Assembly (NCBI RefSeq): GCF_039941195.1
Contig: NZ_JBDVFA010000098.1
Span: 99,775-163,774 of the forward strand
DNA: 64,000 bases
Direction of reading: 5' to 3'
Source of the DNA: Aurantibacter sp.
GTDB taxonomy: Bacteria; Bacteroidota; Bacteroidia; Flavobacteriales; Flavobacteriaceae
This document shows positions 3,155-20,554 of this stretch, one piece after another (the stretch's first letter is position 1; every line of letters starts with the position of its first letter). Both the position numbers and the translations under genes were made by a program. The notes below the pieces were generated by a model. The model saw only the letters and a list, made by a program, of their open reading frames with translations. It was not told the origin of the DNA and searched no databases.

Positions 3155-4921
3155 CTAATAACCTTGATTCTGTGTTAAGAATCCATCGATACCAGACGCC
3201 CCGTCAACTGCACTTTGTGGAATTGGGAACAATCTATGGTTCACATCAGAATCCGTTTTTTCTGTCCAACTATCCTCGTACTTTCCAAAACGAATTTGAT
3301 CGGTTCTTCTAAAACCCTCCCAATACAATTCAAAGCCTCTTTCTCTAAATAAGATATCTAAATCCACTGTTGAAAGTGCCCCTGGTGTTTGATCAGGTCT
3401 GGCCGTTCTTGATATTCTAACCATATTTACATCAGTTAAGGCACTAGCATTGTCACCTTTTCTTAGTTTGGCTTCTGCACGCATCAGATATATTTCAGCC
3501 AAGCGCATCATTACTAAATCAACGCTACTATAACCATTTCCATTAGGAGATGTGCGACTATACTGGTATTTTGAAAAGCGATACCCAGCATGGTGCAAAG
3601 ACCCTACATTGGTAAAATCAACTTGAAAGGTGTGATCAACATATCCGGTATCTCTGTCAGGTCCGTTGCCTTTGGTTTGTTGTAGCGGGTAGATTCGTAT
3701 TGATCCATCATCACATTTTTCAAGATCACCATCACCTCTACGTGGCCCCCATTGAATACCGCGTAGAATACCACGATCCATTTCAAATTCTTCTGCTACC
3801 ACACAATAGTAACTGTTTTCTGTTTCCGTCGCCAACAAAGGTTCCCGATTTTCCAAGTCTGAAAGTTGTACTTCTGGAACCAGAGTATTTCTTTGATAGA
3901 AACGTGCATCAGCTTCTGCAGGGTCTACATCATCATAAGCATCTACCCAGCTTAGATAAAAGTCGGGTGATACAGCAGGGCCATCGGTACCATCTGCAGT
4001 ATTGTCTGGATAAAATTCCGGTCTAGCAATCATTGCTCCTGCAATGGACCAATATGCCCACCGACTATGTTCTCTATTAAGAACCCCTCTTTGGTCTAAG
4101 GCAAAAATAAGTTCAGCATTTGTGTTGTTATCATCATTAAAAAGTTCAAAATATTCTGGAGATAGGTCATAACTGCCCGAATTTATTATTTGATCGGTAT
4201 AAGCTATAACCTTATCCATATCCTCATCCATAAAATTGGGGGTACCATAAGGGTCTCTATATATTGCAGCATTAAGGTATAACCTTGCTAAAAAACCTTT
4301 TACGGCATCTTGGGTAATACGTCCAGGACCTTTGTCATTATTAATTAGATCAACGACAGATAACAATTCACTTTCAATATAAGCAATTGCCTCATCCGTT
4401 CTAAGTACTTCTGAAAGCGCATCTGACGATTCCTTCTTAAAGACCACACCCCAACTATCAAGCATCAACATGTTTAAATAAGCCCTAAGTGCCTTCATTT
4501 CATACAATGCCCCCGAAGCTTCCACATTACCTTCTTCAGAAAGCGGAGTCAGTACTTCAATAGCTGAAAGGGTTCTTGAAATATTAATAGCCACTTGGTT
4601 CCATCCAGAACTAATCAAATCATTACTGGGCGTAAAATTGTGTTGATGTGCAGCTATGTACTTGCCTCCATCAAACCAGTCTGTTCCTCCTCTATAAGGA
4701 AGTATGGCCTCATCCGAGGAAACCTCTTGAAGACCAAAGTAATTAGTATGCCTCCAAGTCCATGATAGATAACCGTAGGCAGGGGCAATGGCTCCGTTTA
4801 TGGCATCTGCTTCTGCACCAAATTCAGTTTCATCAATTCGCTCTTCTATTAAATCGGTACAGCTTAGACCCAATAGCCCGAACAGTACCATATAAACTCC
4901 TATTTTAATTCTATTTTTCAT
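3155..4921 (-). CDS. SusD/RagB family outer-membrane lipoprotein
   Basis: Lipobox LGLSC; C-terminal RLAEIYLMRAEA, ERGFELYWEGFRRTDQIRFG and LFPIP motifs; directly downstream of a SusC. Confidence 0.93.
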   Translation of the reverse strand: MKNRIKIGVYMVLFGLLGLSCTDLIEERIDETEFGAEADAINGAIAPAYGYLSWTWRHTNYFGLQEVSSDEAILPYRGGTDWFDGGKYIAAHQHNFTPSNDLISSGWNQVAINISRTLSAIEVLTPLSEEGNVEASGALYEMKALRAYLNMLMLDSWGVVFKKESSDALSEVLRTDEAIAYIESELLSVVDLINNDKGPGRITQDAVKGFLARLYLNAAIYRDPYGTPNFMDEDMDKVIAYTDQIINSGSYDLSPEYFELFNDDNNTNAELIFALDQRGVLNREHSRWAYWSIAGAMIARPEFYPDNTADGTDGPAVSPDFYLSWVDAYDDVDPAEADARFYQRNTLVPEVQLSDLENREPLLATETENSYYCVVAEEFEMDRGILRGIQWGPRRGDGDLEKCDDGSIRIYPLQQTKGNGPDRDTGYVDHTFQVDFTNVGSLHHAGYRFSKYQYSRTSPNGNGYSSVDLVMMRLAEIYLMRAEAKLRKGDNASALTDVNMVRISRTARPDQTPGALSTVDLDILFRERGFELYWEGFRRTDQIRFGKYEDSWTEKTDSDVNHRLFPIPQSAVDGASGIDGFLTQNQGY

Positions 4922-4939
4922 CTTTTAAACAATTATAAG

Positions 4940-7930
4940 TTAGAATGATACATTTAGGCCAAACATGAATGTTCTGGCAGTGGGATACCTGTACCTATCA
5001 ATTCCAAAGGTTTGTATTTGGTCTATTTGACTCCCCGTATTTACTTCAGGATCGTAACCTGAATAATCGGTAATGGTGAAAAGATTCTGTCCTGTAATGT
5101 TAAAACGTATATTGTTAACCCATTCATCAAGGCCAATTATAGACGGATCAAGTGAATAACCCAAACTTGCATTGTTAAGTCTTAGAAAACTACCATCTTC
5201 TAAATAACGTGTAGATACATCATTAGAGTTAGTAGTGCTTTCGTTAGGATATGCAACAGCAAAATCTGTAGTATTTAAGTTATTAACCAATTGTCCTTTG
5301 TTAAATTGAGACATAGCTGTATGGTTAAATATTTTGTTGCCTGATACTCCATTAAAATTCAAACCTAAATCCAATTTTTTATAATTGAAATTCATATAGA
5401 AAGCATAAAGCACATTTGGAAGCGCGCTACCTGGTACAATACGGTCATTATCTAAGGACACCCCGTCAGCTACAACATCACTAAATTGGTTCAAGCCATC
5501 TTCGCCTATTCCAATAAAATCTTTCATGTAAAAGGCACCAATAGCCTCATTGTTGATGTAACCATTAATAGTAGCACCTGTTTGTCCGGCACCTTGTGCA
5601 GCCCCCGAGGTAATTACTGAATATATAGACCCTTCTACTACGTTATCTATAAAAGAAACATTACCACCTAGATTATAGGTAAAATCTTCACCAATATTAC
5701 CCCTGTAATCCAACGCAACTTCATAACCCTTATTCTTCACCTCCATATCTGGAAAATTGGTCCAGTACTTTTCTGTGGGGTTAATCGGATCCGGAGTTGT
5801 AGCAAATAAAATTACATCATTAGTGACTTTGTTGAAATAATCTAGTGTTCCTGTTAGACTGCCATTAAAAAAGGCAAAATCTAGTCCTACGTTGGCCTGT
5901 GTTACCACTTCCCACTTTAGGTCCGGATTAGCCGTTCGAACAGCAATGGTGCCATAAGGGTAATCATCTAAAGAAGATTCTGTACCGTCCAAAGGATAGG
6001 TGTCGTTATCACTTTTAGAATCATTATAACTGGCATAACTAGCTTTACTAGCAATCCCGTTCTGGTTTCCAGTTTGCCCCCAAGAGGCACGTAATTTAAG
6101 GTTGCTAATTAAGTCACTATCAGCCAAAAAATCTTCTTTGTAAATGTTCCATCCCAAAGCAACAGATGGAAAATAACCGTATTTATTATTGGAACCAAAT
6201 CTAGAAGAACCATCAGCACGTAAGGTTCCTGTTACCAAATATTTGTCCGCATAAGAATAGTTTAACCTTCCAAAATAAGACTGTAGTTCATCTGTAGTGG
6301 CAGTAGATGCTATTGTTGTAGCCGTAACATCTGTACTGGATTGGTCTTGGTAACGAGGTTCTATTCCGTTATTTGCAAAACCGCCTTGAAAATCAATATC
6401 CTTTCTTTCAAATTTTGTTTCTTGGTACGAATGCCCAGCTAAAAGAGTAATGCTATGCTTATCGAAATCCAATTTATAATTTAGCGTATTTTCAATTAAG
6501 TAGTTACTATTCTCTGTAGAAATGGTATTTAAAGTGCCCATGAACAGCCCTTCACCTAAGGTATAGGGCATATTTTGAATATCTCGATTAGTCATTGAAT
6601 AATCCACTCCCAGATTCACCTTATAGGTTAACCCTTTTACAATTTCTACGGAAGGAGTAATATTTGCTAAAATACGATTGCTACTAGCTTCGTCTAAGTA
6701 AATCTCATTTCGTTGTAACGGGTTTAGGATTAATCCACTAGCTCCCTCCAATACAGCAATATTACCATTGCTATCATACGCCGAAGAAGTAGGATTCAAT
6801 TGGAGCATACTCACAATTGTTGATCCAATATCGGGTCTTTCATTTATAGTTTTTGAAGCAGTCAAATTAAAGTCAACATCCAACTTCCCATCAAAGGCTT
6901 TTTGGTTCAACTTAACACGACCAGAATATCTTTTCAGGTCACTATTATAGAAAATACCTTGTTGGTCTGATACACCTCCAGAAAGAAAATAAGAAAACTT
7001 TTCACTGACACCACCACTCATGGACAAATTAACATTCTTGGTAATTCCGGTACGGGTAAGCGTATCTTGCCAATCTGTGTTGCCACCTTGATCGTCTAAG
7101 GTTCCTCCTGCTGCAGGTACCTGTTGTCTAAACTCATCGGCGCTAAATACATCCATCTTTTTAGCGATGGAAGACATAGCTGTAGAGACAGACAGTTCCA
7201 TTTCTGCCTTACCAGCCTTTCCTTTTTTAGTGGTAATCATAATTACCCCGTTTGCTGCTCGAGCACCATAAATGGCGGTAGCCGATGCATCCTTTAACAC
7301 GTCCATCGATGCGATATCTTGAGGGTTAATAAAATTCAAAGGACTTGTCCCCATACCAATATCATTACTACTGATAACAAAACCGTCAATCACATAAAGT
7401 GGTGCCGTACCTGATCTAAGGCTCCCTACCCCTCTAATAATAACGTTCTGTGATGCTCCTGGCTCCCCACTCACATTGGTAATATTTACTCCAGAAACTT
7501 TTCCTTGTAGTAATTGCCCTGGGTTGGTAACTACCCCTTGATTAAAATCTTCGCTCTTTACCGATGCAATAGATCCTGTAACATCTGATTTTTTCTGAGT
7601 TCCATAACCTATAACCACCACATCTTCTAACTGTGTTGCATCTTCTTTAAGTTGTACAATTACTGAGTTTTGCCCATTAAGTGGTACATCCATTGTAGTA
7701 TAACCTATATAAGAAAGTTCTAAAACGGCATTTAGCTCGGCAACATCTATTGTAAAATTTCCATCAAAATCTGTTGTCGTTCCATTGGAGGTTCCCTTTT
7801 CTATAACACTCGCACCAGGTAGTGGAGAACCAAATTCGTCGGTAACGTTACCGTTCACAGTTTGTTGAGCCCACGCATTTGAAGCGCAACAAAACAAACT
7901 AATAATCATTAATAATTTGAGTTTTTTCAT
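4940..7930 (-). CDS. SusC/RagA family TonB-dependent transporter
   Basis: Carboxypeptidase-like N-domain (LPGASVIEKGTSNGTTTDFDGNF), plug motif DVLKDASATAIYGARAANGVIMITTKKG, LRADGSSRFG, C-terminal YPTARTFMFGLNVSF. Confidence 0.96.
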   Translation of the reverse strand: MKKLKLLMIISLFCCASNAWAQQTVNGNVTDEFGSPLPGASVIEKGTSNGTTTDFDGNFTIDVAELNAVLELSYIGYTTMDVPLNGQNSVIVQLKEDATQLEDVVVIGYGTQKKSDVTGSIASVKSEDFNQGVVTNPGQLLQGKVSGVNITNVSGEPGASQNVIIRGVGSLRSGTAPLYVIDGFVISSNDIGMGTSPLNFINPQDIASMDVLKDASATAIYGARAANGVIMITTKKGKAGKAEMELSVSTAMSSIAKKMDVFSADEFRQQVPAAGGTLDDQGGNTDWQDTLTRTGITKNVNLSMSGGVSEKFSYFLSGGVSDQQGIFYNSDLKRYSGRVKLNQKAFDGKLDVDFNLTASKTINERPDIGSTIVSMLQLNPTSSAYDSNGNIAVLEGASGLILNPLQRNEIYLDEASSNRILANITPSVEIVKGLTYKVNLGVDYSMTNRDIQNMPYTLGEGLFMGTLNTISTENSNYLIENTLNYKLDFDKHSITLLAGHSYQETKFERKDIDFQGGFANNGIEPRYQDQSSTDVTATTIASTATTDELQSYFGRLNYSYADKYLVTGTLRADGSSRFGSNNKYGYFPSVALGWNIYKEDFLADSDLISNLKLRASWGQTGNQNGIASKASYASYNDSKSDNDTYPLDGTESSLDDYPYGTIAVRTANPDLKWEVVTQANVGLDFAFFNGSLTGTLDYFNKVTNDVILFATTPDPINPTEKYWTNFPDMEVKNKGYEVALDYRGNIGEDFTYNLGGNVSFIDNVVEGSIYSVITSGAAQGAGQTGATINGYINNEAIGAFYMKDFIGIGEDGLNQFSDVVADGVSLDNDRIVPGSALPNVLYAFYMNFNYKKLDLGLNFNGVSGNKIFNHTAMSQFNKGQLVNNLNTTDFAVAYPNESTTNSNDVSTRYLEDGSFLRLNNASLGYSLDPSIIGLDEWVNNIRFNITGQNLFTITDYSGYDPEVNTGSQIDQIQTFGIDRYRYPTARTFMFGLNVSF

Positions 7931-8040
7931 TTAGTTTAGATTAGTTAATTAAGTTAAAATTTTGAGCACTACATCGTTTGAAATAGCACCTATGAATTTA
8001 CAAGTTGTTTTTTATTAAAACAAAAGCATTTTTGAAGCCG

Positions 8041-8048
8041 CAAAAATA
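8041..8048 (-). promoter_or_regulatory. Possible Bacteroidota sigma-ABfr -7 element upstream of susC
   Basis: Minus strand TATTTTTG matches TAnnTTTG, about 110 nt upstream of the susC start. No well-spaced -33 TTG seen. Confidence 0.3.
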
Positions 8049-8187
8049 ATAGGGAATAATGGCGCGTCTATTACCCAAATCTTACGATTGGATTAATAAA
8101 TATTTACCAAATTTCTACAATGTTAACTAAATGTTATATTCAATACCTTGTATAAACTAGTATGATATTTTTAGTTCAGATTGGTTG

Positions 8188-9948
8188 TTAAGGTTGTATT
8201 TCTAACACCTGCAATATTTTTAAAAAGACCTCATTATTCTCGTAAACCCCTTGAAATTCAGTAGATTTGGGGCCATACGCAAAAATAGGCACCATTACAC
8301 CTGTATGGTCATGAGTGCTAAAAGCAGATTCAATTTCATGATTTTTTATATTTCCCTGAGGAATTGTAAGTCCACCTGTTTCGTGGTCAGCAGTAATAAT
8401 CACTAAAGTTTTTGGGTTTTGATCCGCAAATTTCAACGCTTCTGCAACGGCTTTATCAAATTGAATACTTTCATTAATAACTCCGCTAATATCATTTTCA
8501 TGACCGTATGAATCAATTTTAGCACCTTCAACCATTAAAAAAAATGGCTTTCCCTTTTTGTTCAAATAGTGCATTGCATTCTTTGCCGCTATTGCAAGTT
8601 CTGCGTTATCTTTCATTAGATAACCCACCTTTTCTTTTTTACTATTTCCTAAACTTTTTAATGAAGTAAGCATCTCAAAAGACGTTACTTTATTATTTAT
8701 ATTTTCCTTCCACAATCCATTACTAATAAAAAGCGACAATTTACTTTTTACAAGATCAGCTGCAATCTCTTTAGACATATCACGATCTAGCTGATGTGCA
8801 TAAAAAGAAGAAGGGGTAGCGCCAACTACTTCGTCAGTAGTAACAACCCCTGAAACAAATTTTTTACGAGAAAGAAATTCTGTTAAATTCTCGATAGGAT
8901 TACCACTAGCATCAACTCCAATTGCTCTATTTGGCACTTTCTCACCCGTTGCCAAAGCCGTACCTGCAGCAGCAGAATCTGTAGTAAAATCATCTGAAGA
9001 CTGTGTTTTTAAGAATCCAATACTCTTTAATTGTGTAAGCGATAATTGACCATTGTTAGCTAATGCAGTTGCAGATATTTGTGTAATTCCGTTACCATCA
9101 CCAATTAATAAAATTACACTTTCAACTTCATCATCTTTTTGATCTGAAACAAAACTGGGTGAATACACCTCTGAAAATTGCGCATTTTGAACAACACTTT
9201 TATCCAAATTTTGAACATAAGAAACACAGTTAAAAGGCATATCAGTATTAATAAAATCAACTCCTAAATTTACCATAACCTTCCATGAGGTTTTAGAATC
9301 TGGCGTTGCCCAAAAGCGAAATGGTTTTCCAAGAGCATGAGCCTTAGCTACAGCGTTAGAAACTTTGGTAAAATCTTCGTCTGTCAACCTACCTTTACCG
9401 TTCCAAAAGGAGAATTTTTTAAAGCTTAAACTTACAAGTGCAATCTTATTTAATATGGATGCATCGCCAATTGCCTCTAAACTTTGATAATCAAAATAGA
9501 TATAATCTGGATAATTTATATAATCTTCAACTTTTGGTCGATTACCTGAAATTACAATAGATAGATTTTTATTTTCTATCAAAGTAGGATACATTTTTAA
9601 AGCAGAAATAATGGCCTCTAAAGTTGCATAAGCCTCTGATTTAATATCCAAAAGCAATTGAAAAGGCTGATCACCAATATTTGTGGTTTTTAGGCCCTTT
9701 GCCAAAGGGTTTAAATAAAGCTCTTCAAGGCTTTTACTTTCACTAATTTCATTTTTTTCATGTGCAACAAGTAATTTATTAGCTGCCAAAAAAACATCAG
9801 CTTCAACAGACGTAGCTCCAGCAGAAACAGCCTTCCAAAAAGGAATGCTCTGAAAATAATCGTTATGTGAATGAACCCTAAAATCACTTGGTTGCTGTGC
9901 AAACAAAATAGTTGTAGTAAAAAATAAAAGGAATATAATTTTTTTCAT
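8188..9948 (-). CDS. Secreted fusion: N-terminal PLC/GDPD-like TIM-barrel phosphodiesterase + C-terminal alkaline phosphatase
   Basis: Signal peptide (ILFA/QQ). N-domain HSHNDY...SVEADV...LLVAHE...LLLDIK, FRFWATPD, FINTD. C-domain ILLIGDGNG, TDSAAAGTA (Ser nucleophile), FFLMVEGAKIDSYGH, TADHETGG, HTG. Confidence 0.88.
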   Translation of the reverse strand: MKKIIFLLFFTTTILFAQQPSDFRVHSHNDYFQSIPFWKAVSAGATSVEADVFLAANKLLVAHEKNEISESKSLEELYLNPLAKGLKTTNIGDQPFQLLLDIKSEAYATLEAIISALKMYPTLIENKNLSIVISGNRPKVEDYINYPDYIYFDYQSLEAIGDASILNKIALVSLSFKKFSFWNGKGRLTDEDFTKVSNAVAKAHALGKPFRFWATPDSKTSWKVMVNLGVDFINTDMPFNCVSYVQNLDKSVVQNAQFSEVYSPSFVSDQKDDEVESVILLIGDGNGITQISATALANNGQLSLTQLKSIGFLKTQSSDDFTTDSAAAGTALATGEKVPNRAIGVDASGNPIENLTEFLSRKKFVSGVVTTDEVVGATPSSFYAHQLDRDMSKEIAADLVKSKLSLFISNGLWKENINNKVTSFEMLTSLKSLGNSKKEKVGYLMKDNAELAIAAKNAMHYLNKKGKPFFLMVEGAKIDSYGHENDISGVINESIQFDKAVAEALKFADQNPKTLVIITADHETGGLTIPQGNIKNHEIESAFSTHDHTGVMVPIFAYGPKSTEFQGVYENNEVFLKILQVLEIQP

Positions 9949-10123: not shown

Positions 10124-11206
10124 TTATAATTTAATTGGTGCTGCTTCCATCAATTGCTTGTCAATTTTTAAATTCATTGCTTTAAGAATAGTGGGGGCAA
10201 TCATATTAGTATATAATTGATTATTCCTTTTAATTTCTCCTTTGGGCGAAACTCCTTTACCAAAGAAGGCCATCCATACTTCACCTGAATTTTTTACCTC
10301 ATCTCCGTGACTACGCCATGTATCTAGAGGTTGAGTACCTCTTCCGTGATCCGTAGTTATTATGAATAGGGTATTATCTTTATAAAATGGGTCTTGTTGT
10401 GTGAAATTCCAAATTTCATTAATCATATCATCGGTGGCATTTGCAGATTTCAGATATGCATCATACTCGCCATCATGGGCGAAATCATCAGTTTCACCGT
10501 ATGCGATATATACCAATTCAGGATGATTTTTCTTCATAGTTTCTAGTGCATAATAATGCGTAAAACCATCGAACCGAACAGTACCCCACGGACTAGGAAC
10601 TTTCGGCTGAAGTTCGTTTAAAAGTTTTTCGCGATCGGTGAGGTTATTTCCTTTCGCATTTTCAAAACCAGCATTAACCGGAACACCTGATCGTTCTTCA
10701 TTTATTATATATGGAAAAACATCCCAGCTTCCAAAAGCGGCTACCTTGCCTTTATACCTTACATCAGAATTAGCAATTTCTAATACAGTTTTACTCGGAT
10801 TATTAATTTTAGCATTACTATCAATTCTTTCATCATCAGCTTTGCCTGTTAAAATTTCATTATAGCCAGGGTATGAAAACCACATTTTATTGGTTAAATT
10901 CACTTTACTACCAAAATTTCTATTCCCATGAATTTGACCTAATGCTGTAACTTTTGACCAAAAAAAAGGAAGTAGCGTTTCTCTTCTTTCGGCAGCTGTT
11001 TCTTTCCAGAATTGCTTTTTTAAACCGGTTGTATCATGTACATACTGTTTATTTGCAACTAAAAGCGGATCGGCCCCGGTAAAGAGTTCTTGCCAACGCA
11101 ATCCGTCCAAAGTGATTAATACTACTTTTGTGTTTTTTGATTGTTGCGCTTTTAGTGAAAAAGTAGTTACCATCAAAAAGACAGTAAACATTATTTTAGT
11201 TTTCAT
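10124..11206 (-). CDS. Secreted alkaline-phosphatase-superfamily enzyme (NPP/phosphoglyceromutase-like)
   Basis: Signal peptide (SLKA/QQ); LITLDGLR metal Asp; FSYPGYNEILTG; GETDDFAH; ITTDHGRG; final H. Its ATG overlaps the upstream stop (ATGA, 11203-11206). Confidence 0.8.
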   Translation of the reverse strand: MKTKIMFTVFLMVTTFSLKAQQSKNTKVVLITLDGLRWQELFTGADPLLVANKQYVHDTTGLKKQFWKETAAERRETLLPFFWSKVTALGQIHGNRNFGSKVNLTNKMWFSYPGYNEILTGKADDERIDSNAKINNPSKTVLEIANSDVRYKGKVAAFGSWDVFPYIINEERSGVPVNAGFENAKGNNLTDREKLLNELQPKVPSPWGTVRFDGFTHYYALETMKKNHPELVYIAYGETDDFAHDGEYDAYLKSANATDDMINEIWNFTQQDPFYKDNTLFIITTDHGRGTQPLDTWRSHGDEVKNSGEVWMAFFGKGVSPKGEIKRNNQLYTNMIAPTILKAMNLKIDKQLMEAAPIKL

Positions 11207-12792
11207 TTCTCTTTTGTTTTAAAAGTTTTAACCGCCGACCAATCGCTCCAATTCAAGTTTTGATCTCTGTAGCGAACGCGCCAATAATAAGTTGTATTTG
11301 GTTTTAAGCGTTGTATTTCTTCATCTGTAAGGTCATCATCTTTCTGCCGATTCTCTTTATAATACCAGTTTTCATACTGTTTCCATCTATCAAATGTGGG
11401 CTTTTCAAAAGATTCTGTAGTAGACACTTGCCAATTTGATGCTGCATGAAAAGCACCAGAATAATCACTTTTAAATTCACCTGCTTTAAAAATGACATTG
11501 GTAATTTCAATATCAGATTTCACTGGAGAAATCGCCAGAGGAACATTTGGTTTTCGTTCATTTCTAAAAATAGTTATGCTGTCTCTTAACTCGTTTTCTC
11601 GATGCTCAATTGTATTTCCCCTACTAATTCGTTTTATGGTAAACTTTGGGTTTTTTCGATCTCCATCAACAGATACCATTACAAATCCGTATTCATCTTG
11701 TGTTACGGTAAATTCATCATAATCTTTACCCTCAAATTCACCCCAATTATCAATTGCACCACCTGCTGACGCTACATTAATCCAAAGGTGTTTATGGTCT
11801 TTAGATTGACCTCTAGAATACCCATGTGTGTGTCCAAAAAAGTGAATACTTGGCTTACCGGTTTTAGTTGAAAATTGTTCTAATTCTTTCACAATTTTTC
11901 CGGTGAAATCTTCCTCACCAGGAATCCAAAGCTCTGATTTATATGGATGATGTAATTGCGCAAAAACAAAATCAATTTTATCATCTTTCTCAGTTTCTAA
12001 AAGCACCTTTTTCAACCATTCTAATTGTTCATATAAATCGCGATAACCATCATTAGAATCTAGACCGATAACACGTGTATTTCCATAGTCTTTATACCAC
12101 CAATGTTCTGCATAAGCTGGGGTACCATTTTCAGGCAAATTGAAATATTTGAAGTAATACACAGAATTACGTTCATGATTACCTGGCACAGGATATACTG
12201 GCACTTCAGAAAATAATTTTTCAGCAGGATTAAAAAAATGGTCTTTCCATTGAAAAAATTTCGAACCTCGTTCCACCAAATCTCCAGGTATAAGAACCAT
12301 TGCAAGATTATCTGGCAAGTTTCCTCCAAACTCTTTTTCAAGATAACCTATAACCCCTTCATTTACAACCTCGTTAAATTTATTAGGCTGATTATGATCG
12401 TATTGCATATCACTCATGGCTACCAACTTAAAATCTTCACCATCATCAGAAAAAGGTGTCGTTTTAAATTGAAAAATATCAGATTTCATTTTTCCTGTTC
12501 GCACACGGTAATAATATTCTGTAAAACGTTCTAAGCCTTCAATTTTTACAGTGTGTAATTGCACCGCATCAAAATTAACAGCTTCCGAAGTTCCTGACGC
12601 TTTTTTACCCAATTTCGGACTTGTTCCCCATTCTAATATACTTTCATCACCAATTGACGTTTGCCACATTACTACGGCTGAATTGGGTTCAACATCTTGT
12701 AGATACGGTTTAATCTCTAATTCTTGCGCCCTTGATTGAGCGCTTATAACTAAGAATAATAAGCATACAATTGCCTTTAATTTGGTATTCAT
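11203..12792 (-). CDS. Purple acid phosphatase / calcineurin-like metallophosphoesterase with N-terminal Ig-like and C-terminal FN3-like domain
   Basis: Signal peptide; KPYLQ N-domain; MSDMQ, PGDLV, PGNHE, QLHHP, GHTHGY; C-terminal YYWRVRYRD...WSDWS. Confidence 0.88.
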   Translation of the reverse strand: MNTKLKAIVCLLFLVISAQSRAQELEIKPYLQDVEPNSAVVMWQTSIGDESILEWGTSPKLGKKASGTSEAVNFDAVQLHTVKIEGLERFTEYYYRVRTGKMKSDIFQFKTTPFSDDGEDFKLVAMSDMQYDHNQPNKFNEVVNEGVIGYLEKEFGGNLPDNLAMVLIPGDLVERGSKFFQWKDHFFNPAEKLFSEVPVYPVPGNHERNSVYYFKYFNLPENGTPAYAEHWWYKDYGNTRVIGLDSNDGYRDLYEQLEWLKKVLLETEKDDKIDFVFAQLHHPYKSELWIPGEEDFTGKIVKELEQFSTKTGKPSIHFFGHTHGYSRGQSKDHKHLWINVASAGGAIDNWGEFEGKDYDEFTVTQDEYGFVMVSVDGDRKNPKFTIKRISRGNTIEHRENELRDSITIFRNERKPNVPLAISPVKSDIEITNVIFKAGEFKSDYSGAFHAASNWQVSTTESFEKPTFDRWKQYENWYYKENRQKDDDLTDEEIQRLKPNTTYYWRVRYRDQNLNWSDWSAVKTFKTKEK

Positions 12793-12823
12793 GTTCTTGA
12801 TTTAAATATTTTATGAATAATTT

Positions 12824-14188
12824 TTATGCCCTTAAATGATACGATTTAGGTTGCACAAAAGCCCGAATTCCTTGTGATGATAAAGTAGCTCCCAGACCTG
12901 AATTTTTTCTACCCGACCATGGCACATTTGGACTAACACGATCACAGCAATTCCAATACACAGTACCTGTATTCATTTGTTGAAGAACCTGCATAGCACG
13001 GTTTTCGTTGGCAGTGAAAATTGCTGACGTCAAACCATATTCTGTGTCTTGCATTAAGGCAATAGCTTCAGCATCAGTAGTTACTTTTTGTATACCGATA
13101 ATTGGTCCAAAAGATTCATCTTTCATCACCTTCATAGCATGAGTACAGTCGACCAAAACAGTGGGTTGAAAAAAGTAACCCTCACCATCAATAGCTTTTC
13201 CTCCAGTTTTTAGAACAGCACCTTTTTCTAAGGCATCATTCACTTGATCTTTCAATACTGTAAGTTGTGGTTCTCGCGTTAATGGGCCAATAAAAGTATT
13301 GGTATCATTAGGATCACCTATAGTATACGATGCAACCTCTTCTACAAAGCATTCAACAAATTCATCATAAATTGATTCAGAAACATAAATACGTTCAACG
13401 GCACAACAACTTTGACCATTATTATAAAAAGCGCCTTCTGCGGCATTTATAGCAGCAACTTTTACATTGGGCACATCATCTGCAATAAAGAGCGGGTCTT
13501 TTCCGCCTAATTCCAACTGCAATGGAACTAATTTTGCTGCTACAGATTTTGCTATTTTTTGACCAGTTGCATGAGATCCCGTAAAAAAGTAACCATCAAA
13601 TTCTGATTCTAAAATTTGTTGTCCTAATTTTCCATCACCAATAGCACATTTAAATACATTATTTGGTACACCAGCCTCATATAAATATTTTTCAAATTGC
13701 TTACCAGTAAGACTCGCAAATTCTGAAGGTTTATACAAAACAGCATTACCTGCAACCAAAGCATATAGAAAAACATTGTAACCTACATTGTATGGGAAAT
13801 TCCAAGCTGAAATATTTGCAATAACACCTAATGGCTCATAAACTATTTTCTCATGCGTAGCACCACTAGCCACCAATACCTCATCGGCTAACCATTTTTC
13901 AGCATTATCAATTAAATGGTCTATTCTATTCTGAGCGCCGACAATTTCATTTAACGATTGCTGTAATGGTTTCCCTGTTTCACTGGTAAGTAAAGCAGCT
14001 AATTCATCTTTATTTTGTTGAATAAGACTTCCGAACTTTACAATACAATCCAAACGCTCACCAACAGACCGTTGAGACCATTCTTTCTGTCCGCTTTGAA
14101 GTATTTTCAATAATTCATTCACTTCTTGCGGATTGTTAGCTTCCAATTCGGCTATAATTTTATTTGTTGCCGGGTTCTTAATTTTCAT
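12824..14188 (-). CDS. NAD(P)-dependent aldehyde dehydrogenase
   Basis: AWNFP, KPSE, FTGS, LELGGKDP (catalytic Glu), GQSCCA (catalytic Cys), ESFGP. Confidence 0.95.
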   Translation of the reverse strand: MKIKNPATNKIIAELEANNPQEVNELLKILQSGQKEWSQRSVGERLDCIVKFGSLIQQNKDELAALLTSETGKPLQQSLNEIVGAQNRIDHLIDNAEKWLADEVLVASGATHEKIVYEPLGVIANISAWNFPYNVGYNVFLYALVAGNAVLYKPSEFASLTGKQFEKYLYEAGVPNNVFKCAIGDGKLGQQILESEFDGYFFTGSHATGQKIAKSVAAKLVPLQLELGGKDPLFIADDVPNVKVAAINAAEGAFYNNGQSCCAVERIYVSESIYDEFVECFVEEVASYTIGDPNDTNTFIGPLTREPQLTVLKDQVNDALEKGAVLKTGGKAIDGEGYFFQPTVLVDCTHAMKVMKDESFGPIIGIQKVTTDAEAIALMQDTEYGLTSAIFTANENRAMQVLQQMNTGTVYWNCCDRVSPNVPWSGRKNSGLGATLSSQGIRAFVQPKSYHLRA

Positions 14189-14202
14189 TTCAAAATTTGA
14201 AT

Positions 14203-14940
14203 TTATTTTACTTGTTTTAAAAAGGCCTTATATAAAATATTATGGTCAATGAGTTCTCCACTTAAGGTGTTCGAAAATTCCGGGTGCCATTGTACGCCCA
14301 TCACCTTTCCGTTTTGTTCTTTGTTGTATCCAAAAGCCTCAATTAACCCATCATCACTATGTGCATAAACCGTTAGGTCTTCTCCTAAATCTTTTACTGC
14401 CTGATGATGCACTGTATTTACATGTGGATCTTTAATACCTTTGTATAAAGTATCAAAAAAGGTGTTTTCAACAATTTTTAAAGGATGCTTAATTGTATCA
14501 TACAATTCAGCTGATCTATGTTTATTTACATGAGGTAATTGTGTATCTAGATCTTGATATAGTGTACCACCAAAATAGGCATTCATCAATTGAAATCCAC
14601 GACAAATTCCTAAAACCGGCAATGAATTTTTAATTGCAAAATCAAGAATTTTCAATTCATATTGATCTCTATGCGCATCACCTTTCCATCTGCCAATTGG
14701 CTTTTCACCATAAGTTTCTGGTGCCAAATCACTACCGCCTTGTAATACAATACCGCTAACTTCAGATAAAATTGCTTCCAAATAAGAGTCATCCACATCA
14801 GGTATTAAAACTGGAAGAATACCTTTTTGTGTCACATACCGAGCCATGTCATTTTCAATGTAACTCAGCGATTTCATACCAAACACTGTCCGGTCTTTAT
14901 CTGGGTACATAAAGCAAGAAGAAATACCAATTTTTATCAT
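14203..14940 (-). CDS. Gamma-glutamyl-amide hydrolase, peptidase C26 / PuuD-like (class I glutamine amidotransferase fold)
   Basis: LQGGSD, RDQYE, LGICRGFQ (nucleophilic Cys), VNTVHHQAV, GVQWHPE (His-Glu). Confidence 0.9.
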   Translation of the reverse strand: MIKIGISSCFMYPDKDRTVFGMKSLSYIENDMARYVTQKGILPVLIPDVDDSYLEAILSEVSGIVLQGGSDLAPETYGEKPIGRWKGDAHRDQYELKILDFAIKNSLPVLGICRGFQLMNAYFGGTLYQDLDTQLPHVNKHRSAELYDTIKHPLKIVENTFFDTLYKGIKDPHVNTVHHQAVKDLGEDLTVYAHSDDGLIEAFGYNKEQNGKVMGVQWHPEFSNTLSGELIDHNILYKAFLKQVK

Positions 14941-14949
14941 TTCTTATTG

Positions 14950-16092
14950 TTAAAGTGCTGTTTGATATAACTTTTTAAAATCTTCTAATGCCACCGGTTT
15001 GGGGTTATTTGGATGACAAAAATCTGCCAGCGCCAAAACCGACAATTCATCAATATGCTCTGCTTTAACACCTATTGCTGATAACTTTGTGGGAAGTCCT
15101 AATTTTTCATTCAACTCAAATAAGTGAGAAACCACCTTACTGCCCTCATTAGACCCAAGCCCTAAAGCAACTGCCATTTTATCAAATCGGTCTTCAAAAC
15201 CTTCATAATTAAAGTCCATTCCATAGGGTAAATTAATAGCATTTGCCAAACCGTGATGGGTGTCAAATACACTAGATAATGGATGCGCCAAACTATGTAC
15301 TACTCCCAAACCTTTTTGGAAAGCAACAGCACCCATTAGTGATGCTAATAGCATTTTTGAACGCGATTCTATATCCGGATTTTTCGTAGCGGTTTCTAAA
15401 GACTGTGCAATCAATGTAATTCCTTCAAGAGCAATTCCATCGCACATTGGGTGAAAACCTTTTGCAACATACGCTTCCATATTATGGGTTAAGGCATCCA
15501 TACCTGTAGCAGCAGTAATAAAACCCGGAAGTTCCATTGTCAACATAGGATCTGCAAAGACAATTTTTGCCATCAACTTTGGACTAAACAAAATTCGTTT
15601 CTTTTTGCTTTCATCTTCCGAGATTATAGCACTTCTACCCACCTCACTTCCAGTACCTGAAGTTGTTGGCACGGTTATAAAATGAGGTACATCTTCAGTA
15701 ACATATTTATCACCACCTATTAGATCATCATAATCAAAAAGATCACGTTTATGATTAACTCGTAGAACGATGGCTCTAGCAACGTCTAAAGCAACGCCAC
15801 CACCAATACCTACAATACAATCGCACTTGGCATCATGATAAGCATCACCACCTTTAAGAACATCCGATTTAAGTGGATTTTTGTGCATTTCAGTGAATAC
15901 TTCTACACTCAATCCAGCTTTTTCTATGTCCTTCTTTATTTTTTTAAAAAAGGACAATTCTGCTACAGTACCATCAGTTACAAAAAGTGGCTTTTTTAGG
16001 TTATGGCTTTTTAAGTAATCAGCTAGCTCATTAATAACACCACTTCCAAAGCGAATTGGAGTTGGAAAATTATAAGTATATGTAGTATTCAA
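14950..16092 (-). CDS. Iron-containing alcohol dehydrogenase (TTG start)
   Basis: GIGGGVALD, PTTSGTGSE, GMDALTHNME, HSLAH, HHGLAN (Fe ligands). Confidence 0.92.
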   Translation of the reverse strand: MNTTYTYNFPTPIRFGSGVINELADYLKSHNLKKPLFVTDGTVAELSFFKKIKKDIEKAGLSVEVFTEMHKNPLKSDVLKGGDAYHDAKCDCIVGIGGGVALDVARAIVLRVNHKRDLFDYDDLIGGDKYVTEDVPHFITVPTTSGTGSEVGRSAIISEDESKKKRILFSPKLMAKIVFADPMLTMELPGFITAATGMDALTHNMEAYVAKGFHPMCDGIALEGITLIAQSLETATKNPDIESRSKMLLASLMGAVAFQKGLGVVHSLAHPLSSVFDTHHGLANAINLPYGMDFNYEGFEDRFDKMAVALGLGSNEGSKVVSHLFELNEKLGLPTKLSAIGVKAEHIDELSVLALADFCHPNNPKPVALEDFKKLYQTAL

Positions 16093-16103
16093 TTTTTATC
16101 TAT

Positions 16104-17459
16104 TTAAATTATTTCGAAATATCTTTTGGTTTCCCAATCAGTCACAGCAGCAGCAAATTGCTTCCATTCCCATTCTCGGGTATATGTAAAATGATCTACA
16201 AACGCTTCACCAAAAATCTCTTTCGCAATTGTTGAGTTTTTCATTTTTATCGCTGCTTCTAATAAGTTTGAAGGCAGCTTTCCATTTTTAAAGTCTAGGT
16301 ATCCATTACCATTTGTTGGTTCAACAGTTAATTCAAGCTTATGCTTAATTCCGTATAACCCACTAGCCAAACAAGCAGCCATTGCCAAATAAGAATTCGT
16401 ATCAGAACCTACTACTCTATGTTCAATTCTTGTTGATTTTGCAGAACCTACTAAAGGTCTTAGCGCTGTGGTTCTATTATCATGACCCCACGTAATTGTA
16501 GTTGGTGCCCAAGCTCCTTCCACTAAGCGTTTATAACTATTTATTGTTGGGGCAAACATGGGTAATATTTCTGGAAGACAAAGTAATTGTCCTGCAAGAA
16601 AACTCCGCATTATAGTACTCATTCCATCTTTTGCCTTTTCATCAAAAAACAAATTGGTTTTCATATCTACATCCCAAAGGCTTTGATGAACATGACCACT
16701 ACAACCGGGTAAATCACTACTAGGTTTGGCCATAAAACTTGGCACTATACCATGCTTGTGACCGATTTCTTTGGCTGCGGTTTTAAACAAAACTGCACGA
16801 TCAGCAGCTTCAAGAATTCCACTATATTGAATAGCCGCCTCTGTAACTCCAGGGCCAGTTTCAGTATGAAGACCTTCTAATGGAACATTAAATTCACCTA
16901 ACAAATCGAAAAGGTCCTGAAAAAATTCGGAGTTTTCTGATAATTTCAACATAGAATACCCAAACATTCCAGAAGTAAGTGGTTGTAGGTTACTAAAATT
17001 CTTTTCGTTTACAGAAGTCGACGTTTCTTTATAATTAAACCATTCAAATTCTTGAGAAAACATGGCAGCAAAACCCATTTGTTCACTTTCAGCAATTATC
17101 TTTTTTAGCAAACTTCTTGGGCACACCGAAAAATTTTCTTCTCCATTCGAAAAATCAGCTAAAAACAGCGGTGTATTCTTTTCCCAAGGAATTGTTCTAA
17201 AAGTATTTAAATCGATATACGCATTTACATCTCCATAACCCGTATGCCATCCGGTAACTTTAGCATTTTCATATGAAACGTCATCCATATCCCATCCAAA
17301 GACTACCGAACAAAATCCGAATCCGTCTTTTAATGCTGCAATAAACTTGTCTTTATGCATGTATTTACCGCGTAAAACGCCATCAATATCTACAATAGCC
17401 AACTTTATTTTATGATGACCGCTTTCTTGAATTCTTAAGATAATTTCATTTTTGTCCAT
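16104..17459 (-). CDS. Glutamine-synthetase-like gamma-glutamyl-amine ligase (PuuA/GlnA4-like)
   Basis: DIDGVLRGK, EFEWF, HTETGPG, KP...GCSGHVHQS, NSYKRL..WAP, NRTTALR, RIEHR. The flap reads GAWAP where true GS has GYEAP. Confidence 0.88.
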   Translation of the reverse strand: MDKNEIILRIQESGHHKIKLAIVDIDGVLRGKYMHKDKFIAALKDGFGFCSVVFGWDMDDVSYENAKVTGWHTGYGDVNAYIDLNTFRTIPWEKNTPLFLADFSNGEENFSVCPRSLLKKIIAESEQMGFAAMFSQEFEWFNYKETSTSVNEKNFSNLQPLTSGMFGYSMLKLSENSEFFQDLFDLLGEFNVPLEGLHTETGPGVTEAAIQYSGILEAADRAVLFKTAAKEIGHKHGIVPSFMAKPSSDLPGCSGHVHQSLWDVDMKTNLFFDEKAKDGMSTIMRSFLAGQLLCLPEILPMFAPTINSYKRLVEGAWAPTTITWGHDNRTTALRPLVGSAKSTRIEHRVVGSDTNSYLAMAACLASGLYGIKHKLELTVEPTNGNGYLDFKNGKLPSNLLEAAIKMKNSTIAKEIFGEAFVDHFTYTREWEWKQFAAAVTDWETKRYFEII

Positions 17460-17468
17460 GGGCTACCT

Positions 17469-18791
17469 TTATTTCATTTTATGATTGAGAAAAATTAAGA
17501 AATACAGATATGAAACCCCAATAATACCAATGAAAATTAATGCGATATTAAAATTATAATAGGTCATTGATACAAAAGCAATTATAGCAATTATCAGTGC
17601 AGTACTAGGAAACAGGGGAAACAGAGGCACTTTAAATGGACGTTCTAATTCAGGTTCTTTTTTTCGAAGTGCAAAAAATGAAAGCATTGATACGATGTAG
17701 AGTCCTAAAGCACCAAAACAAGCAATGGTAATAATCTCACCTGTTTTACCTGTAAACAAAGCCACAATGCCAATAAGCATATTCACAATTAATGAGTTTG
17801 CTGGCGTTCTATACTTTTTATGAATTGCCCCTAGCACTTTAGGAGCATAACCAACTCTACCGAATTCAAAAGTTGATCGGCCACCAGCAAGAATAATTCC
17901 ATGAAAAGAAGCTACCAAACCTAATAGGCCAATACCTACTAAAAGTTTATACAAAATATGATCACTAGACACCACGTAAGAAATAGCTAAAGGAAGTGGT
18001 GAATCTGAGGCAATTGCACTACCTGCAGGATACACTACAGCCTCCCAACCTGCCACGCCAACTGCTGAAGCAAAAGTGAGCAAACATAAAATAACCAAGG
18101 TTAAAATGGCAGAACCAAAACCTATTAAAATACTTCGCTGTGGATTAATAGCTTCTTCTGCTACATTTGCTACGCCTTCTATCGCTAAGAAAAACCAGAT
18201 AGCGAAAGGAATGGCGGCAAAAATACCAGCGTAACCATTTGGCAATGGATTAGATTGAACATTTGCCCATTCAAATTCAGGCAATGTAACCCCAGAAAAT
18301 ATTAAAAGCTCGATAATAGCTAATACGGTAATTACCAATTCAAAAGTAGCTGCCAGTTTTACCCCTAGAATATTAATTAAGGTAAAAATTACATACGCAC
18401 CAATAGCAAAAATCATTAAATCTACAGAAGGATAAAGTAGGTTTAAATACGCGCCAATTGCTGCAGCTATGGCCGGCGGCGCAAAAACGAATTCTATATT
18501 TTGAGTAATACCCGCTAAAAATCCTAAATGCTTACCGAGCCCCCTATTTGCATATTCAAATGCTCCACCAGCTTTAGGAATGGCACAAGCCATTTCGGTA
18601 TAGCTAAAGGTAAACGTAACGTACATTAGTATGATGAAAATGGTAGCAATCGCAAGTCCGTATGTACCTCCTTCGGCAAGACCTAAATTCCATCCGAAGT
18701 ACATTCCCGATATTACATATCCAACACCTAACCCCCATAACATTAAAGGACTTAGTACTTTTTTCAATTTGGGTTGGTCGGTTTGGCTCAT
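17469..18791 (-). CDS. eat: Ethanolamine permease (APC family)
   Basis: LWGLGVGYVISGMYFGW, IEFVFAPPAIAAAIGAYL and AIPFAIWFFLAIEG match motifs I recall for Eat-type permeases; about 12 hydrophobic segments. Confidence 0.82.
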   Translation of the reverse strand: MSQTDQPKLKKVLSPLMLWGLGVGYVISGMYFGWNLGLAEGGTYGLAIATIFIILMYVTFTFSYTEMACAIPKAGGAFEYANRGLGKHLGFLAGITQNIEFVFAPPAIAAAIGAYLNLLYPSVDLMIFAIGAYVIFTLINILGVKLAATFELVITVLAIIELLIFSGVTLPEFEWANVQSNPLPNGYAGIFAAIPFAIWFFLAIEGVANVAEEAINPQRSILIGFGSAILTLVILCLLTFASAVGVAGWEAVVYPAGSAIASDSPLPLAISYVVSSDHILYKLLVGIGLLGLVASFHGIILAGGRSTFEFGRVGYAPKVLGAIHKKYRTPANSLIVNMLIGIVALFTGKTGEIITIACFGALGLYIVSMLSFFALRKKEPELERPFKVPLFPLFPSTALIIAIIAFVSMTYYNFNIALIFIGIIGVSYLYFLIFLNHKMK

Positions 18792-18978
18792 TTCGGTTGG
18801 TTTATCAATATCGCAAAATTCATGACAGTTGAATAATACCTGAAATTAAAATTTTTTAGAATATAAAACCTAGTTTTTCAATTATTTAGTTAATTATGTA
18901 CATTTAATTACGATATACAGGAATATACTTCTAAAAACATCATCTCGAAGATTGTTATTTAGGCTAAAAATACTACTC

Positions 18979-19449
18979 ATGAAACTGGACGAAAAAGACC
19001 TAAAAATTTTAGATTTATTACAAGAGGATGCTAATATTACTAACAAGCAAATAGCGCTAGCAACTAATTTAACTTTAACACCTGTTTATGAACGTATTAA
19101 AAAGCTTACATCTTTAGCGTTACTTAAGAAAAAGGTTTATTTATTGAATCGTAAAAAATTAGGGCTGAATGTAATGGTATTGGTTTCAGTCAAAATTGAA
19201 AAACACTCCGAAGAAGGAGCACTATCATTTATGAATGAAATAAAAAAAATTCCTGAAGTAATCGAATGTTTGCATGTTACCGGGGCTTTTGACTTTCAAT
19301 TAAAGGTTATTACAAAAGATATTGATACATATCACGAATTTAATTTTAAAAAATTAGCTACAATTAAAAATATTAGTCAAATGGAAAGCTATTTTGTGAT
19401 GAAAGAGGTTATAAATTCAACTCGATTGCCTTTGTCTATTATTAAATAA
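18979..19449 (+). CDS. Lrp/AsnC family transcriptional regulator, divergent from eat
   Basis: LDEKDLKILDLLQEDANITNKQIA HTH and ECLHVTGAFDFQLKV RAM domain. ATG at 18979 preferred over the TTG at 18952. Confidence 0.9.
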   Translation: MKLDEKDLKILDLLQEDANITNKQIALATNLTLTPVYERIKKLTSLALLKKKVYLLNRKKLGLNVMVLVSVKIEKHSEEGALSFMNEIKKIPEVIECLHVTGAFDFQLKVITKDIDTYHEFNFKKLATIKNISQMESYFVMKEVINSTRLPLSIIK

Positions 19450-19450
19450 A

Positions 19451-19900
19451 TTATACGACTTCAACGATTGTAATCTCATTTCCATTAAATTGAATACGCT
19501 CATCTTTTACCTTTCCTAATAAAAGCTGCGCTATAGGGGTTAAAATAGAAATGCAATACACAGATGTAGCATCGTCTTTATACTCGCCTGCGGAAATCGC
19601 CAAAAAATAATGTGCCGTTGAAGTCTTTACCCAACTACCTAATTGCACTGTTGTAGTAGATTTAGCAATATTAACTTTGGCTAGCGTTTGTTTCATTTTT
19701 TCAGCTTCGGCCAACTGCTGTCCCAGTTTTTCGCGTTCTAACTGCAACATTGCTCTACCAGTCTCATGCTTGTCACCTGCGCTACTCTTTGTCTCAGAAG
19801 TTAACGCATCTTGAATTGATGAAATGTTATTTTGAATTCGACTTAACCTTTGTTCTACAAAAGTTTGACAGAAATTATAGTATTTTTCTTTTTTAATCAT
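19451..19900 (-). CDS. GreA/GreB-like small protein (Bacteroidota type)
   Basis: Coiled coil with TKSSAGDKHETGRAMLQLE; C-terminal VQLGSWV...IS..TPIAQLLLGK resembles the Gre C-domain. Confidence 0.6.
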   Translation of the reverse strand: MIKKEKYYNFCQTFVEQRLSRIQNNISSIQDALTSETKSSAGDKHETGRAMLQLEREKLGQQLAEAEKMKQTLAKVNIAKSTTTVQLGSWVKTSTAHYFLAISAGEYKDDATSVYCISILTPIAQLLLGKVKDERIQFNGNEITIVEVV

Positions 19901-19918
19901 TAAGAATTTAGAGAAATC

Positions 19919-20554
19919 TTAAAAGTGATACAAATCTGCCAATTGGTATATTAAGAAGTTAATCACCGCTGCTTCACCTTTTCCTTGCTGAAACATTTCT
20001 TGAACCACGGCTTGATTTTCATCTTTAAAGAATTCTAAATCATCTGTTCCGTAAGTACTGAATATATTCCAAGATTTTAAACCTTCAAGCATCTCACGAT
20101 GCGCATGAAAACGTTGATTTATTTTTTCTAGCTTTTCTTTAAATTCTTTACTCTTCTTTTTTTCTTTATTTAATGCTACAGCATTTCGTAGCATGTATTC
20201 TTTTTCTAAACGTTCATCTGCTTTTTCAGCCTGTGCGATAATTCTAACATATGCCGTTCTAACCAATTCATCATACTCAACTTCGAAAGTTGCTTTACTA
20301 GTGCTTTTTTCTATTGCATAATCATCTATAATAATAGCATCATCGTTACTTGCATAAAATTCTTGATCCTGTGAATCATTCGAATCTTCACTAACCAGAG
20401 CATCTTTCCAAGCTTGAGATTTTAAAACTTTTTGCCATGCTTCAGCATAAACCCCATCTGAGGAGGATTTCGTTACAGAACAACTACTCAACGTTACTAT
20501 TAATAACAACAAAGCACACTGCCCTACAGTCTTTTTTACTTTATTCATTTTCAT
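19919..20554 (-). CDS. Hypothetical lipoprotein
   Basis: 211-aa ORF with lipobox LSSC and a charged helical body; no family recognised. Confidence 0.75.
   Translation of the reverse strand: MKMNKVKKTVGQCALLLLIVTLSSCSVTKSSSDGVYAEAWQKVLKSQAWKDALVSEDSNDSQDQEFYASNDDAIIIDDYAIEKSTSKATFEVEYDELVRTAYVRIIAQAEKADERLEKEYMLRNAVALNKEKKKSKEFKEKLEKINQRFHAHREMLEGLKSWNIFSTYGTDDLEFFKDENQAVVQEMFQQGKGEAAVINFLIYQLADLYHF

Follow-up and report, generated by a model that had tools for sequence, protein, structure and literature searches.

We analyzed a compact operon in a 64,000-nucleotide stretch of DNA (hereafter, the window) from a marine flavobacterium, Aurantibacter sp. (assembly GCF_039941195.1, contig NZ_JBDVFA010000098.1, positions 99,775 to 163,774). 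In this operon, genes for an Eat-type permease, a glutamine synthetase (GS)-like ligase, an iron-type alcohol dehydrogenase (Fe-ADH), a hydrolase of the Peptidase C26 family and an aldehyde dehydrogenase (ALDH) follow each other on one strand, next to a divergently transcribed gene for an Lrp/AsnC-family regulator. An earlier note on this DNA, made from the sequence alone, proposed that these genes encode a route of ethanolamine catabolism that proceeds via gamma-glutamylated intermediates and is independent of EutBC. In the open reading frame (ORF) and family searches, all six genes were found at the positions given there (window coordinates):

17469-18791, minus strand: Eat-type ethanolamine permease (APC superfamily), operon gene 1; above the cut-off of the TIGR00908 equivalog
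16104-17459, minus strand: GS-like ligase of clade A (defined below), putative gamma-glutamylethanolamide synthetase; Gln-synt_C, 6e-91
14950-16092, minus strand: Fe-ADH, putative gamma-glutamylethanolamide dehydrogenase; PF00465 and PF25137, full length
14203-14940, minus strand: Peptidase C26/class-I amidotransferase fold, putative gamma-glutamylglycine hydrolase; PF07722, 1.9e-56
12824-14188, minus strand: NAD(P)-dependent ALDH, putative gamma-glutamyl-aminoacetaldehyde dehydrogenase; PF00171, 4e-127
18952-19449, plus strand: divergent Lrp/AsnC-family regulator; HTH_24, HTH_AsnC and AsnC_trans_reg domains
18792-18978, no strand assigned: divergent control region between Eat and Lrp; 187 bp, AT-rich, 24% GC

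The tight spacing of the five genes under the divergent Lrp was borne out as well, with intergenic gaps of 9, 11, 9 and 14 nt. The true start of the Lrp gene is likely the in-frame ATG at 18979. The Bacteroidota -7 box, TAnnTTTG, has no match on either strand of the 187-bp control region, and a scan for sigma-70 promoters yielded no enrichment compared with shuffled sequences. None of the four cytoplasmic enzymes (ligase, Fe-ADH, C26 hydrolase and ALDH) carries a signal peptide.

The permease and the enzymes of the operon

The permease scores 445.7 bits against the TIGR00908 'ethanolamine permease' equivalog, above the cut-off of 381.75, and by this measure the locus is predicted to encode an ethanolamine-specific uptake system. 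The ligase falls under every NCBIfam cut-off, including those of GlnA (TIGR00653; 220.9 bits against 429.15) and gamma-glutamylputrescine synthetase (NF045547, GGputSyn; 205.6 bits against 650). When aligned with GlnA and PuuA of E. coli, the ligase proves to be a GS-fold protein in which the metal, ATP and glutamate residues of GS are all retained (E137, E139, E200, E207, H256, H258, R311, R329, R334, R344, E346 and R348), whereas the flap reads KRLVEGAWAPT, compared with KRLVPGYEAP in GS, with the ammonium-flap Glu327 replaced by Trp317. The tryptophan that the earlier note had read in the flap (GAWAP for GYEAP) is thus in place. We rejected the assignment of this protein as a true type I glutamine synthetase, given that it fails the TIGR00653 cut-off and that the flap glutamate is replaced. 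Two further GS-domain genes are located on another contig of the host genome, so that the window ligase is an accessory paralogue.

The ligase is encoded together with an alcohol dehydrogenase, an aldehyde dehydrogenase and a putative gamma-glutamyl amide hydrolase, all with intact motifs. Fe-ADH contains the GGGxxxD, D..H and H...H motifs; of the NCBIfam models, it matches 4-hydroxybutyrate dehydrogenase best (340 bits, cut-off 500). The top NCBIfam match of the C26 protein is PuuD (88.8 bits, cut-off 266), and its Cys nucleophile, in GICRGFQ, and its HPE motif align with the catalytic residues of PuuD. The ALDH has the catalytic motifs ELGG and GQSCCA and reaches no NCBIfam equivalog.

The host assembly (4.51 Mb in 107 contigs, 99.46% complete) was searched in six frames with hidden Markov models, with E. 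coli as the control. EutB (PF06751) and EutC (PF05985) had no match in the whole assembly, and the E. coli control was positive; hence the absence of eutB and eutC, previously noticed in the window, extends to the entire 4.51 Mb. The canonical Eut pathway, based on ethanolamine ammonia-lyase, was rejected for this organism because both EutB and EutC were not found genome-wide.

The predicted route of ethanolamine utilization

We estimate at roughly 70% the probability that the operon mediates B12-independent utilization of ethanolamine, mainly as a nitrogen source. The broader proposition, that it encodes a gamma-glutamyl route acting on some small amino alcohol, is very likely. In the predicted route, the Eat permease would import ethanolamine, and the GS-like ligase would couple its amine to the gamma-carboxyl of glutamate at the expense of ATP, yielding gamma-glutamylethanolamide. 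The Fe-ADH would convert the hydroxyl of this compound to the aldehyde, gamma-glutamyl-aminoacetaldehyde; ALDH would oxidize the aldehyde to gamma-glutamylglycine; and the C26 hydrolase would split the latter into glycine and glutamate, the glutamate being regenerated. Gamma-glutamylation would mask the amine, sparing the cell free aminoacetaldehyde or acetaldehyde. Regulation of the operon probably falls to the divergent Lrp/AsnC protein. Which amine is used, and in which order the steps run, is inferred; the succession from ethanolamine to glutamate and glycine that was proposed earlier is supported by the protein families, their motifs, the permease model and the absence of eutBC.

Conservation of the module in Bacteroidota

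A homologue scan covering one genome per GTDB species yielded at least 595 loci with a relative of the ligase. All of the best 80 of these are labelled Bacteroidota except for one labelled Francisellaceae and one labelled only 'uncultured bacterium'. The nearest relatives of the ligase, 85-90% identical, come from Aurantibacter crassamenti and Kriegella, which places the window in a marine member of the Flavobacteriaceae. Among the loci of other Bacteroidota species with room on both sides, 43 of 58 contain the genes in the order Eat-GS-FeADH-C26-ALDH on the same strand; because genes, order and orientation are all shared by so many loci, the five-gene layout is not a chance arrangement. Eat adjoins the ligase in 57 of 73 related loci, and Fe-ADH does so in 55 of 62. 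The conservation of the alcohol dehydrogenase and ALDH points to a primary amino alcohol rather than a diamine as the substrate class. Similarly, because the hydrolase that would undo the ligation is conserved co-linearly with the ligase, a catabolic cycle is favoured. The regulator is more narrowly distributed: a divergent Lrp orthologue (67-94% identity) is present at loci L001, L005, L015, L016, L018, L021, L099 and L100. It occurs only in some Flavobacteriaceae and in Sphingobacterium, and was not found beside most of the modules of Chitinophagaceae and Cytophagales.

The phylum was also surveyed through 401 sampled genomes. An Eat-type permease is encoded in 20 of these, beside a clade-A ligase in 12 genomes, beside EutB in two and beside a clade-B ligase in two; EutB was detected in 10 genomes. 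Homologues of the ligase at E<1e-120 are present in 59 genomes, 44 of which belong to one family.

Other arrangements were also seen. Genome G382 (loci L096 and L098) encodes an Eat-EutB pair and a lone clade-A ligase homologue (61% identity) that lacks the other genes of the module. At 11360-16166 of locus L014, a ligase orthologue outside a module is directly followed by ORFs of 997 and 590 aa, the sizes typical of SusC and SusD.

Two clades of ligases and a shared permease

In the maximum-likelihood tree, the ligases form two well-supported groups, which we denote clades A and B. Clade A (100/99 support) includes the window ligase, the ligases of other Bacteroidota modules of the same kind and some genes from proteobacterial plasmids; we know of no characterized member of this clade. 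Clade B includes the enzymes of Chromohalobacter, Roseovarius and Ruegeria, the protein of PDB entry 11zs, a GlnA4-like protein of Streptomyces and a second kind of ligase from Bacteroidota. In the free tree, clade A is nearer to IpuC and PuuA than clade B is; in the approximately unbiased (AU) test, the topology with A and B as sister clades is not rejected (p = 0.09). The window ligase is 33% identical to the Chromohalobacter enzyme, 33% to the Streptomyces GlnA4-like protein and 38% to 11zs. PDB 5dm3, a Chromohalobacter protein that is 95% identical to the C. japonicus cluster representative and that we take to be Csal_0679, is the second-best solved relative of the window ligase. We rejected the ligase as an orthologue of Csal_0679/5dm3 or of GlnA4, in view of its placement in a separate clade and the 33% identity. 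Because the ligase lies outside the characterized clade, its assignment to ethanolamine rests on gene context and not on orthology, and by this gene-context association, ethanolamine probably is the main substrate.

Among solved structures, entry 11zs ('Glutamine synthetase, catalytic domain', 461 aa) lies nearest to clade A as well as to clade B. A 2026 paper on the M. tuberculosis GS was considered as the origin of this entry and rejected, and it provided no specificity residues usable for the ligase. A clade-A ligase on a Rhizobium leguminosarum plasmid (locus L084) is encoded with an ALDH near genes for a GMC oxidoreductase, a PuuD-family hydrolase and a 2-aminoethylphosphonate-pyruvate transaminase, a neighbourhood that may link phosphonate and amino-alcohol catabolism.

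Some Bacteroidota contain a second module, type B (L088 3973-9491; L089 7967-15025), that consists of a clade-B GS-like ligase, a short-chain dehydrogenase (SDR), an ALDH, a class-I amidotransferase and Eat. This module has the layout of the Streptomyces cluster, and its ligase groups with that of Chromohalobacter (5dm3). In the permease tree, the permeases of type B modules fall inside the group formed by those of modules of the window kind (type A), with 65-70% identity, and the EutB-linked Eat proteins form the sister group, at 46-47%. Because of this nesting, one permease orthologue appears to feed two non-orthologous enzyme sets. Given that the shared permease also serves a set whose ligase belongs to the characterized clade, ethanolamine is the favoured substrate.

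Comparison with known gamma-glutamyl pathways

A proteobacterial operon for ethanolamine gamma-glutamylation, in the Csal_0678/0679 region of Chromohalobacter salexigens, was reportedly described by Vetting et al. in 2015. In the Chromohalobacter contig from which we took the proteobacterial gene content, the 5dm3-type locus consists of RpiR followed by FGase-DctQ-DctM-DctP-GS-ALDH-Fe-ADH, the layout of the Phaeobacter eto operon. The route is also described for C. salexigens and Agrobacterium tumefaciens C58 (PMC10132767). In Phaeobacter sp. MED193, the eto proteins rise on phosphatidylethanolamine, and the binding protein of the TRAP transporter binds ethanolamine with a Kd of about 8 uM (PMC10132767). 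The window operon shares with the Chromohalobacter, Agrobacterium and Phaeobacter systems the four predicted chemical steps, the families of the ligase, Fe-ADH and ALDH, and the lack of eutBC. However, the ligase (33% identical to the Chromohalobacter protein) belongs to another clade, and ALDH and Fe-ADH are 37% and 38% identical, respectively. Moreover, the hydrolase is of the C26 family, whereas Chromohalobacter has an N-formylglutamate-amidohydrolase family protein of a different fold family; uptake involves Eat instead of TRAP (DctPQM); and an Lrp-type regulator takes the place of RpiR.

In Streptomyces coelicolor, the GlnA4 step is demonstrated and the remaining steps are predicted (PMC6529630, PMC9397018). 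The GlnA4 (SCO1613) cluster, SCO1610-1615, and the window operon both encode a GS-like ligase, an ALDH and a hydrolase of the class-I amidotransferase fold, and contain no eut genes (PMC6529630). An APC permease, as in the window operon, accompanies the Streptomyces version in other streptomycetes (PMC6529630). The alcohol step is assigned to an SDR in Streptomyces and to Fe-ADH in the window, and the regulator EpuRI belongs to a family other than Lrp. A homologous cluster on a Streptomyces plasmid encodes a clade-B ligase with 33% identity to that of the window; the Streptomyces-type layout itself is found in other Bacteroidota (L088), not in the window. The difference from the Streptomyces cluster that the earlier note expected therefore stands, with an SDR and another regulator in that cluster (PMC6529630). 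Because the Chromohalobacter locus already contains an Fe-ADH, this enzyme is not new at the alcohol step.

The E. coli Puu system (PuuP, PuuA, PuuB, PuuC, PuuD and PuuR) follows a common logic, namely, a gamma-glutamyl tag, oxidation to the acid and C26 hydrolysis, and has three families in common with the window operon. It differs in acting on a diamine, in using the flavoprotein PuuB and in having no alcohol dehydrogenase, and the identities are 26-30%. The Ipu system of Pseudomonas sp. KIE171 (annotated copy on pTC1 of Paenarthrobacter aurescens) includes a GS-like ligase, IpuC, that is 36% identical to the window ligase and has among its neighbours an SDR, an ALDH, hydrolases of the amidotransferase type and a regulator of the AsnC family. 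The Ipu pathway needs a P450 system that hydroxylates gamma-glutamyl-isopropylamide, and the window contains no such genes; as P450 genes are found neither within the operon nor next to it, we rejected membership in the isopropylamine pathway.

Thus, bacteria of other phyla were already known to have this pathway, with its Fe-ADH step. In the literature that we searched, we found no description of a gamma-glutamyl ethanolamine route in Bacteroidota. New features are the separate, uncharacterized clade of the ligase, the mosaic make-up of the module, its broad distribution in Bacteroidota and, in this lineage, the junction with phosphoesterases and SusCD (see below), along with the sharing of a permease orthologue between this module and a second, Streptomyces-like one elsewhere in the phylum.

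Alternative substrates and functions

Several observations weigh against the ethanolamine assignment. The ligase, at 33-38% identity to members of clade B, is no closer to these than to the annotated IpuC (36%). None of the four enzymes (0/4) reaches an NCBIfam equivalog cut-off, and the TIGR00908 assignment of the permease is a sequence-model call, not a measure of transport. The family that accounts for 44 of the 59 sampled genomes with homologues encodes a protein 54-59% identical to the ligase that lacks the module in the two loci examined (L086 and L087), with no ADH, ALDH, C26 or Eat partners beside it. Among the flanking ORFs scanned in L086 (7229-13210), the neighbours are a 346-aa protein without assignment, a HAD hydrolase, a GNAT protein and an amidase. 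The raw tally of 59 in 401 is therefore misleading, and we dropped the statement derived from it, of a six-fold excess of the route over EutBC. Furthermore, judged by gene context, clade A is functionally mixed. Its members on proteobacterial plasmids are found in the context GS-ALDH-FeADH-amidotransferase in Legionella lytica, in the context RpiR-GS-ALDH-amidotransferase in Burkholderia vietnamiensis, with a GMC oxidoreductase nearby in Rhizobium, and with an aminotransferase, an FGase and a spermidine/putrescine ABC transporter in a Rhodobacteraceae plasmid; the aminotransferase and the polyamine transporter in the last case point to a diamine there.

The alternative that survives best, albeit one that we consider unlikely, is that the same chemistry acts on other or several amino alcohols, such as 3-aminopropanol, L-alaninol, serinol or 4-aminobutanol, yielding beta-alanine, alanine, serine or GABA, respectively, with ethanolamine being one substrate among these or a minor one. 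The similarity of the ligase to IpuC, an enzyme of the isopropylamine/alaninol route, which is on par with that to the ethanolamine ligases, the position of the ligase in a clade that is not known to include a characterized member, and the match of Fe-ADH to 4-hydroxybutyrate dehydrogenase as its best model would all fit this possibility. However, the permease passes the ethanolamine-permease equivalog and is orthologous to that of the type B module, in which the ligase groups with enzymes of the Chromohalobacter/Streptomyces type, and no Ipu-type P450 or monooxygenase is encoded among the window genes; besides, ethanolamine is by far the most abundant compound of this kind in nature.

A Puu-like operon for putrescine or cadaverine is a much less probable option. 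The ligase, C26 hydrolase and ALDH do represent the families of PuuA, PuuD and PuuC, and the clade-A relative from the Rhodobacteraceae plasmid belongs to a polyamine context. Nevertheless, the operon lacks both a PuuB oxidase and an aminotransferase that could convert the distal amine, and an alcohol dehydrogenase takes that place, as it does in 55 of the 62 loci; the permease is of the Eat type and not PuuP; and the ligase shares 26% identity with PuuA and reaches 206 bits with the gamma-glutamylputrescine synthetase model that requires 650. On the strength of this score (205.6 with NF045547) and the lack of an oxidase or aminotransferase in the operon, we rejected membership in the Puu putrescine pathway.

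Finally, an ordinary set of genes for nitrogen assimilation or detoxification, with no dedicated pathway and with the GS-like protein making glutamine or a gamma-glutamyl end product, would agree with the intact GS fold and its ATP, glutamate and metal ligands, but is least probable of all, given the replacement of the flap glutamate needed for ammonium, the two other GS genes in the genome and the conserved co-linearity with a hydrolase that would reverse the ligation.

Phosphoesterases and SusCD genes next to the operon

Downstream of ALDH, the window contains further genes on the same strand:

11203-12792, minus strand: secreted purple-acid-phosphatase (PAP)-like metallophosphoesterase; Pur_ac_phosph_N and Metallophos, signal-peptide-like N-terminus; 31 nt after ALDH
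10124-11206, minus strand: secreted protein of the alkaline-phosphatase (AlkP) superfamily, 360 aa; weak Metalloenzyme and Phosphodiest matches, signal peptide; 4-nt overlap with the PAP-like gene
10003-9977: terminator-like hairpin after the AlkP-superfamily gene
8188-9948, minus strand: fusion of GDPD and a PhoA-type alkaline phosphatase (Pfam), in the next co-oriented unit, 3155-9948
4940-7930, minus strand: SusC (Pfam)
3155-4921, minus strand: SusD (Pfam)
3129-3103: terminator-like hairpin after SusD

The C-terminal half of the GDPD-PhoA fusion matches the TAB5 alkaline phosphatase (2w5v, 2e-59), and the 360-aa AlkP-superfamily protein has no relative in PDB by sequence. On the basis of this arrangement, we predict that, in this lineage, the operon extends into the genes for the two secreted phosphoesterases. 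The same run is present in Kriegella sp. EG-1, and a PAP-like orthologue follows the module in locus L001. Both A. crassamenti and K. aquimaris have SusC-SusD after ALDH, ahead of the gene for the PAP-like enzyme, and in a Kriegella metagenome-assembled genome (MAG), SusC directly follows ALDH; the association thus survives rearrangement in this lineage. It is absent from most of the other loci.

By its established enzymology, a GDPD would free ethanolamine from glycerophosphoethanolamine. The source of the ethanolamine may thus be phospholipid head groups, for example, glycerophosphoethanolamine or phosphoethanolamine; this reading is suggested by the continuation of the operon into phosphoesterases and its proximity to the GDPD-phosphatase/SusCD unit, and is in line with the findings on Phaeobacter. 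More tentatively, and with less than even odds in our estimate, clade A could represent another lineage of ethanolamine gamma-glutamylases, recruited independently of the first, that together with Eat, Fe-ADH, C26 and ALDH provides the main B12-independent ethanolamine route in Bacteroidota, with the Kriegella/Aurantibacter version wired to the secreted phosphoesterases (PAP-like, AlkP-superfamily and GDPD-PhoA fusion) and SusCD as a 'phospholipid head-group utilisation locus' that would harvest both phosphate and nitrogen from compounds of the glycerophosphoethanolamine type.

On the other side of the operon, two small genes follow Lrp (window 19451-20554), encoding proteins of 149 aa, with a weak GreA-like C-terminus, and of 211 aa, with no family; in Kriegella sp. 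EG-1 and A. crassamenti, both are likewise conserved as neighbours of the locus.

Implications

Membrane phospholipids hold much organic nitrogen in the form of ethanolamine, the bacterial use of which textbooks tie to the B12-dependent EutBC lyase. A relative of the ligase is encoded in at least 595 species genomes; in the 401-genome sample, EutB occurs in 10 genomes and the pairing of the ligase with Eat in about a dozen (12). If the predicted function is correct, a phylum-wide re-annotation of these 'glutamine synthetase family proteins' would be due. The GS-like superfamily would gain a new specificity clade for structure-function work, and models of how Bacteroidota cycle nitrogen in the sea and in soil would gain a B12-independent route. 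In the Kriegella/Aurantibacter lineage, the link with phosphoesterases and SusCD would join the scavenging of phosphorus and nitrogen from lipids, as shown for Phaeobacter (PMC10132767).

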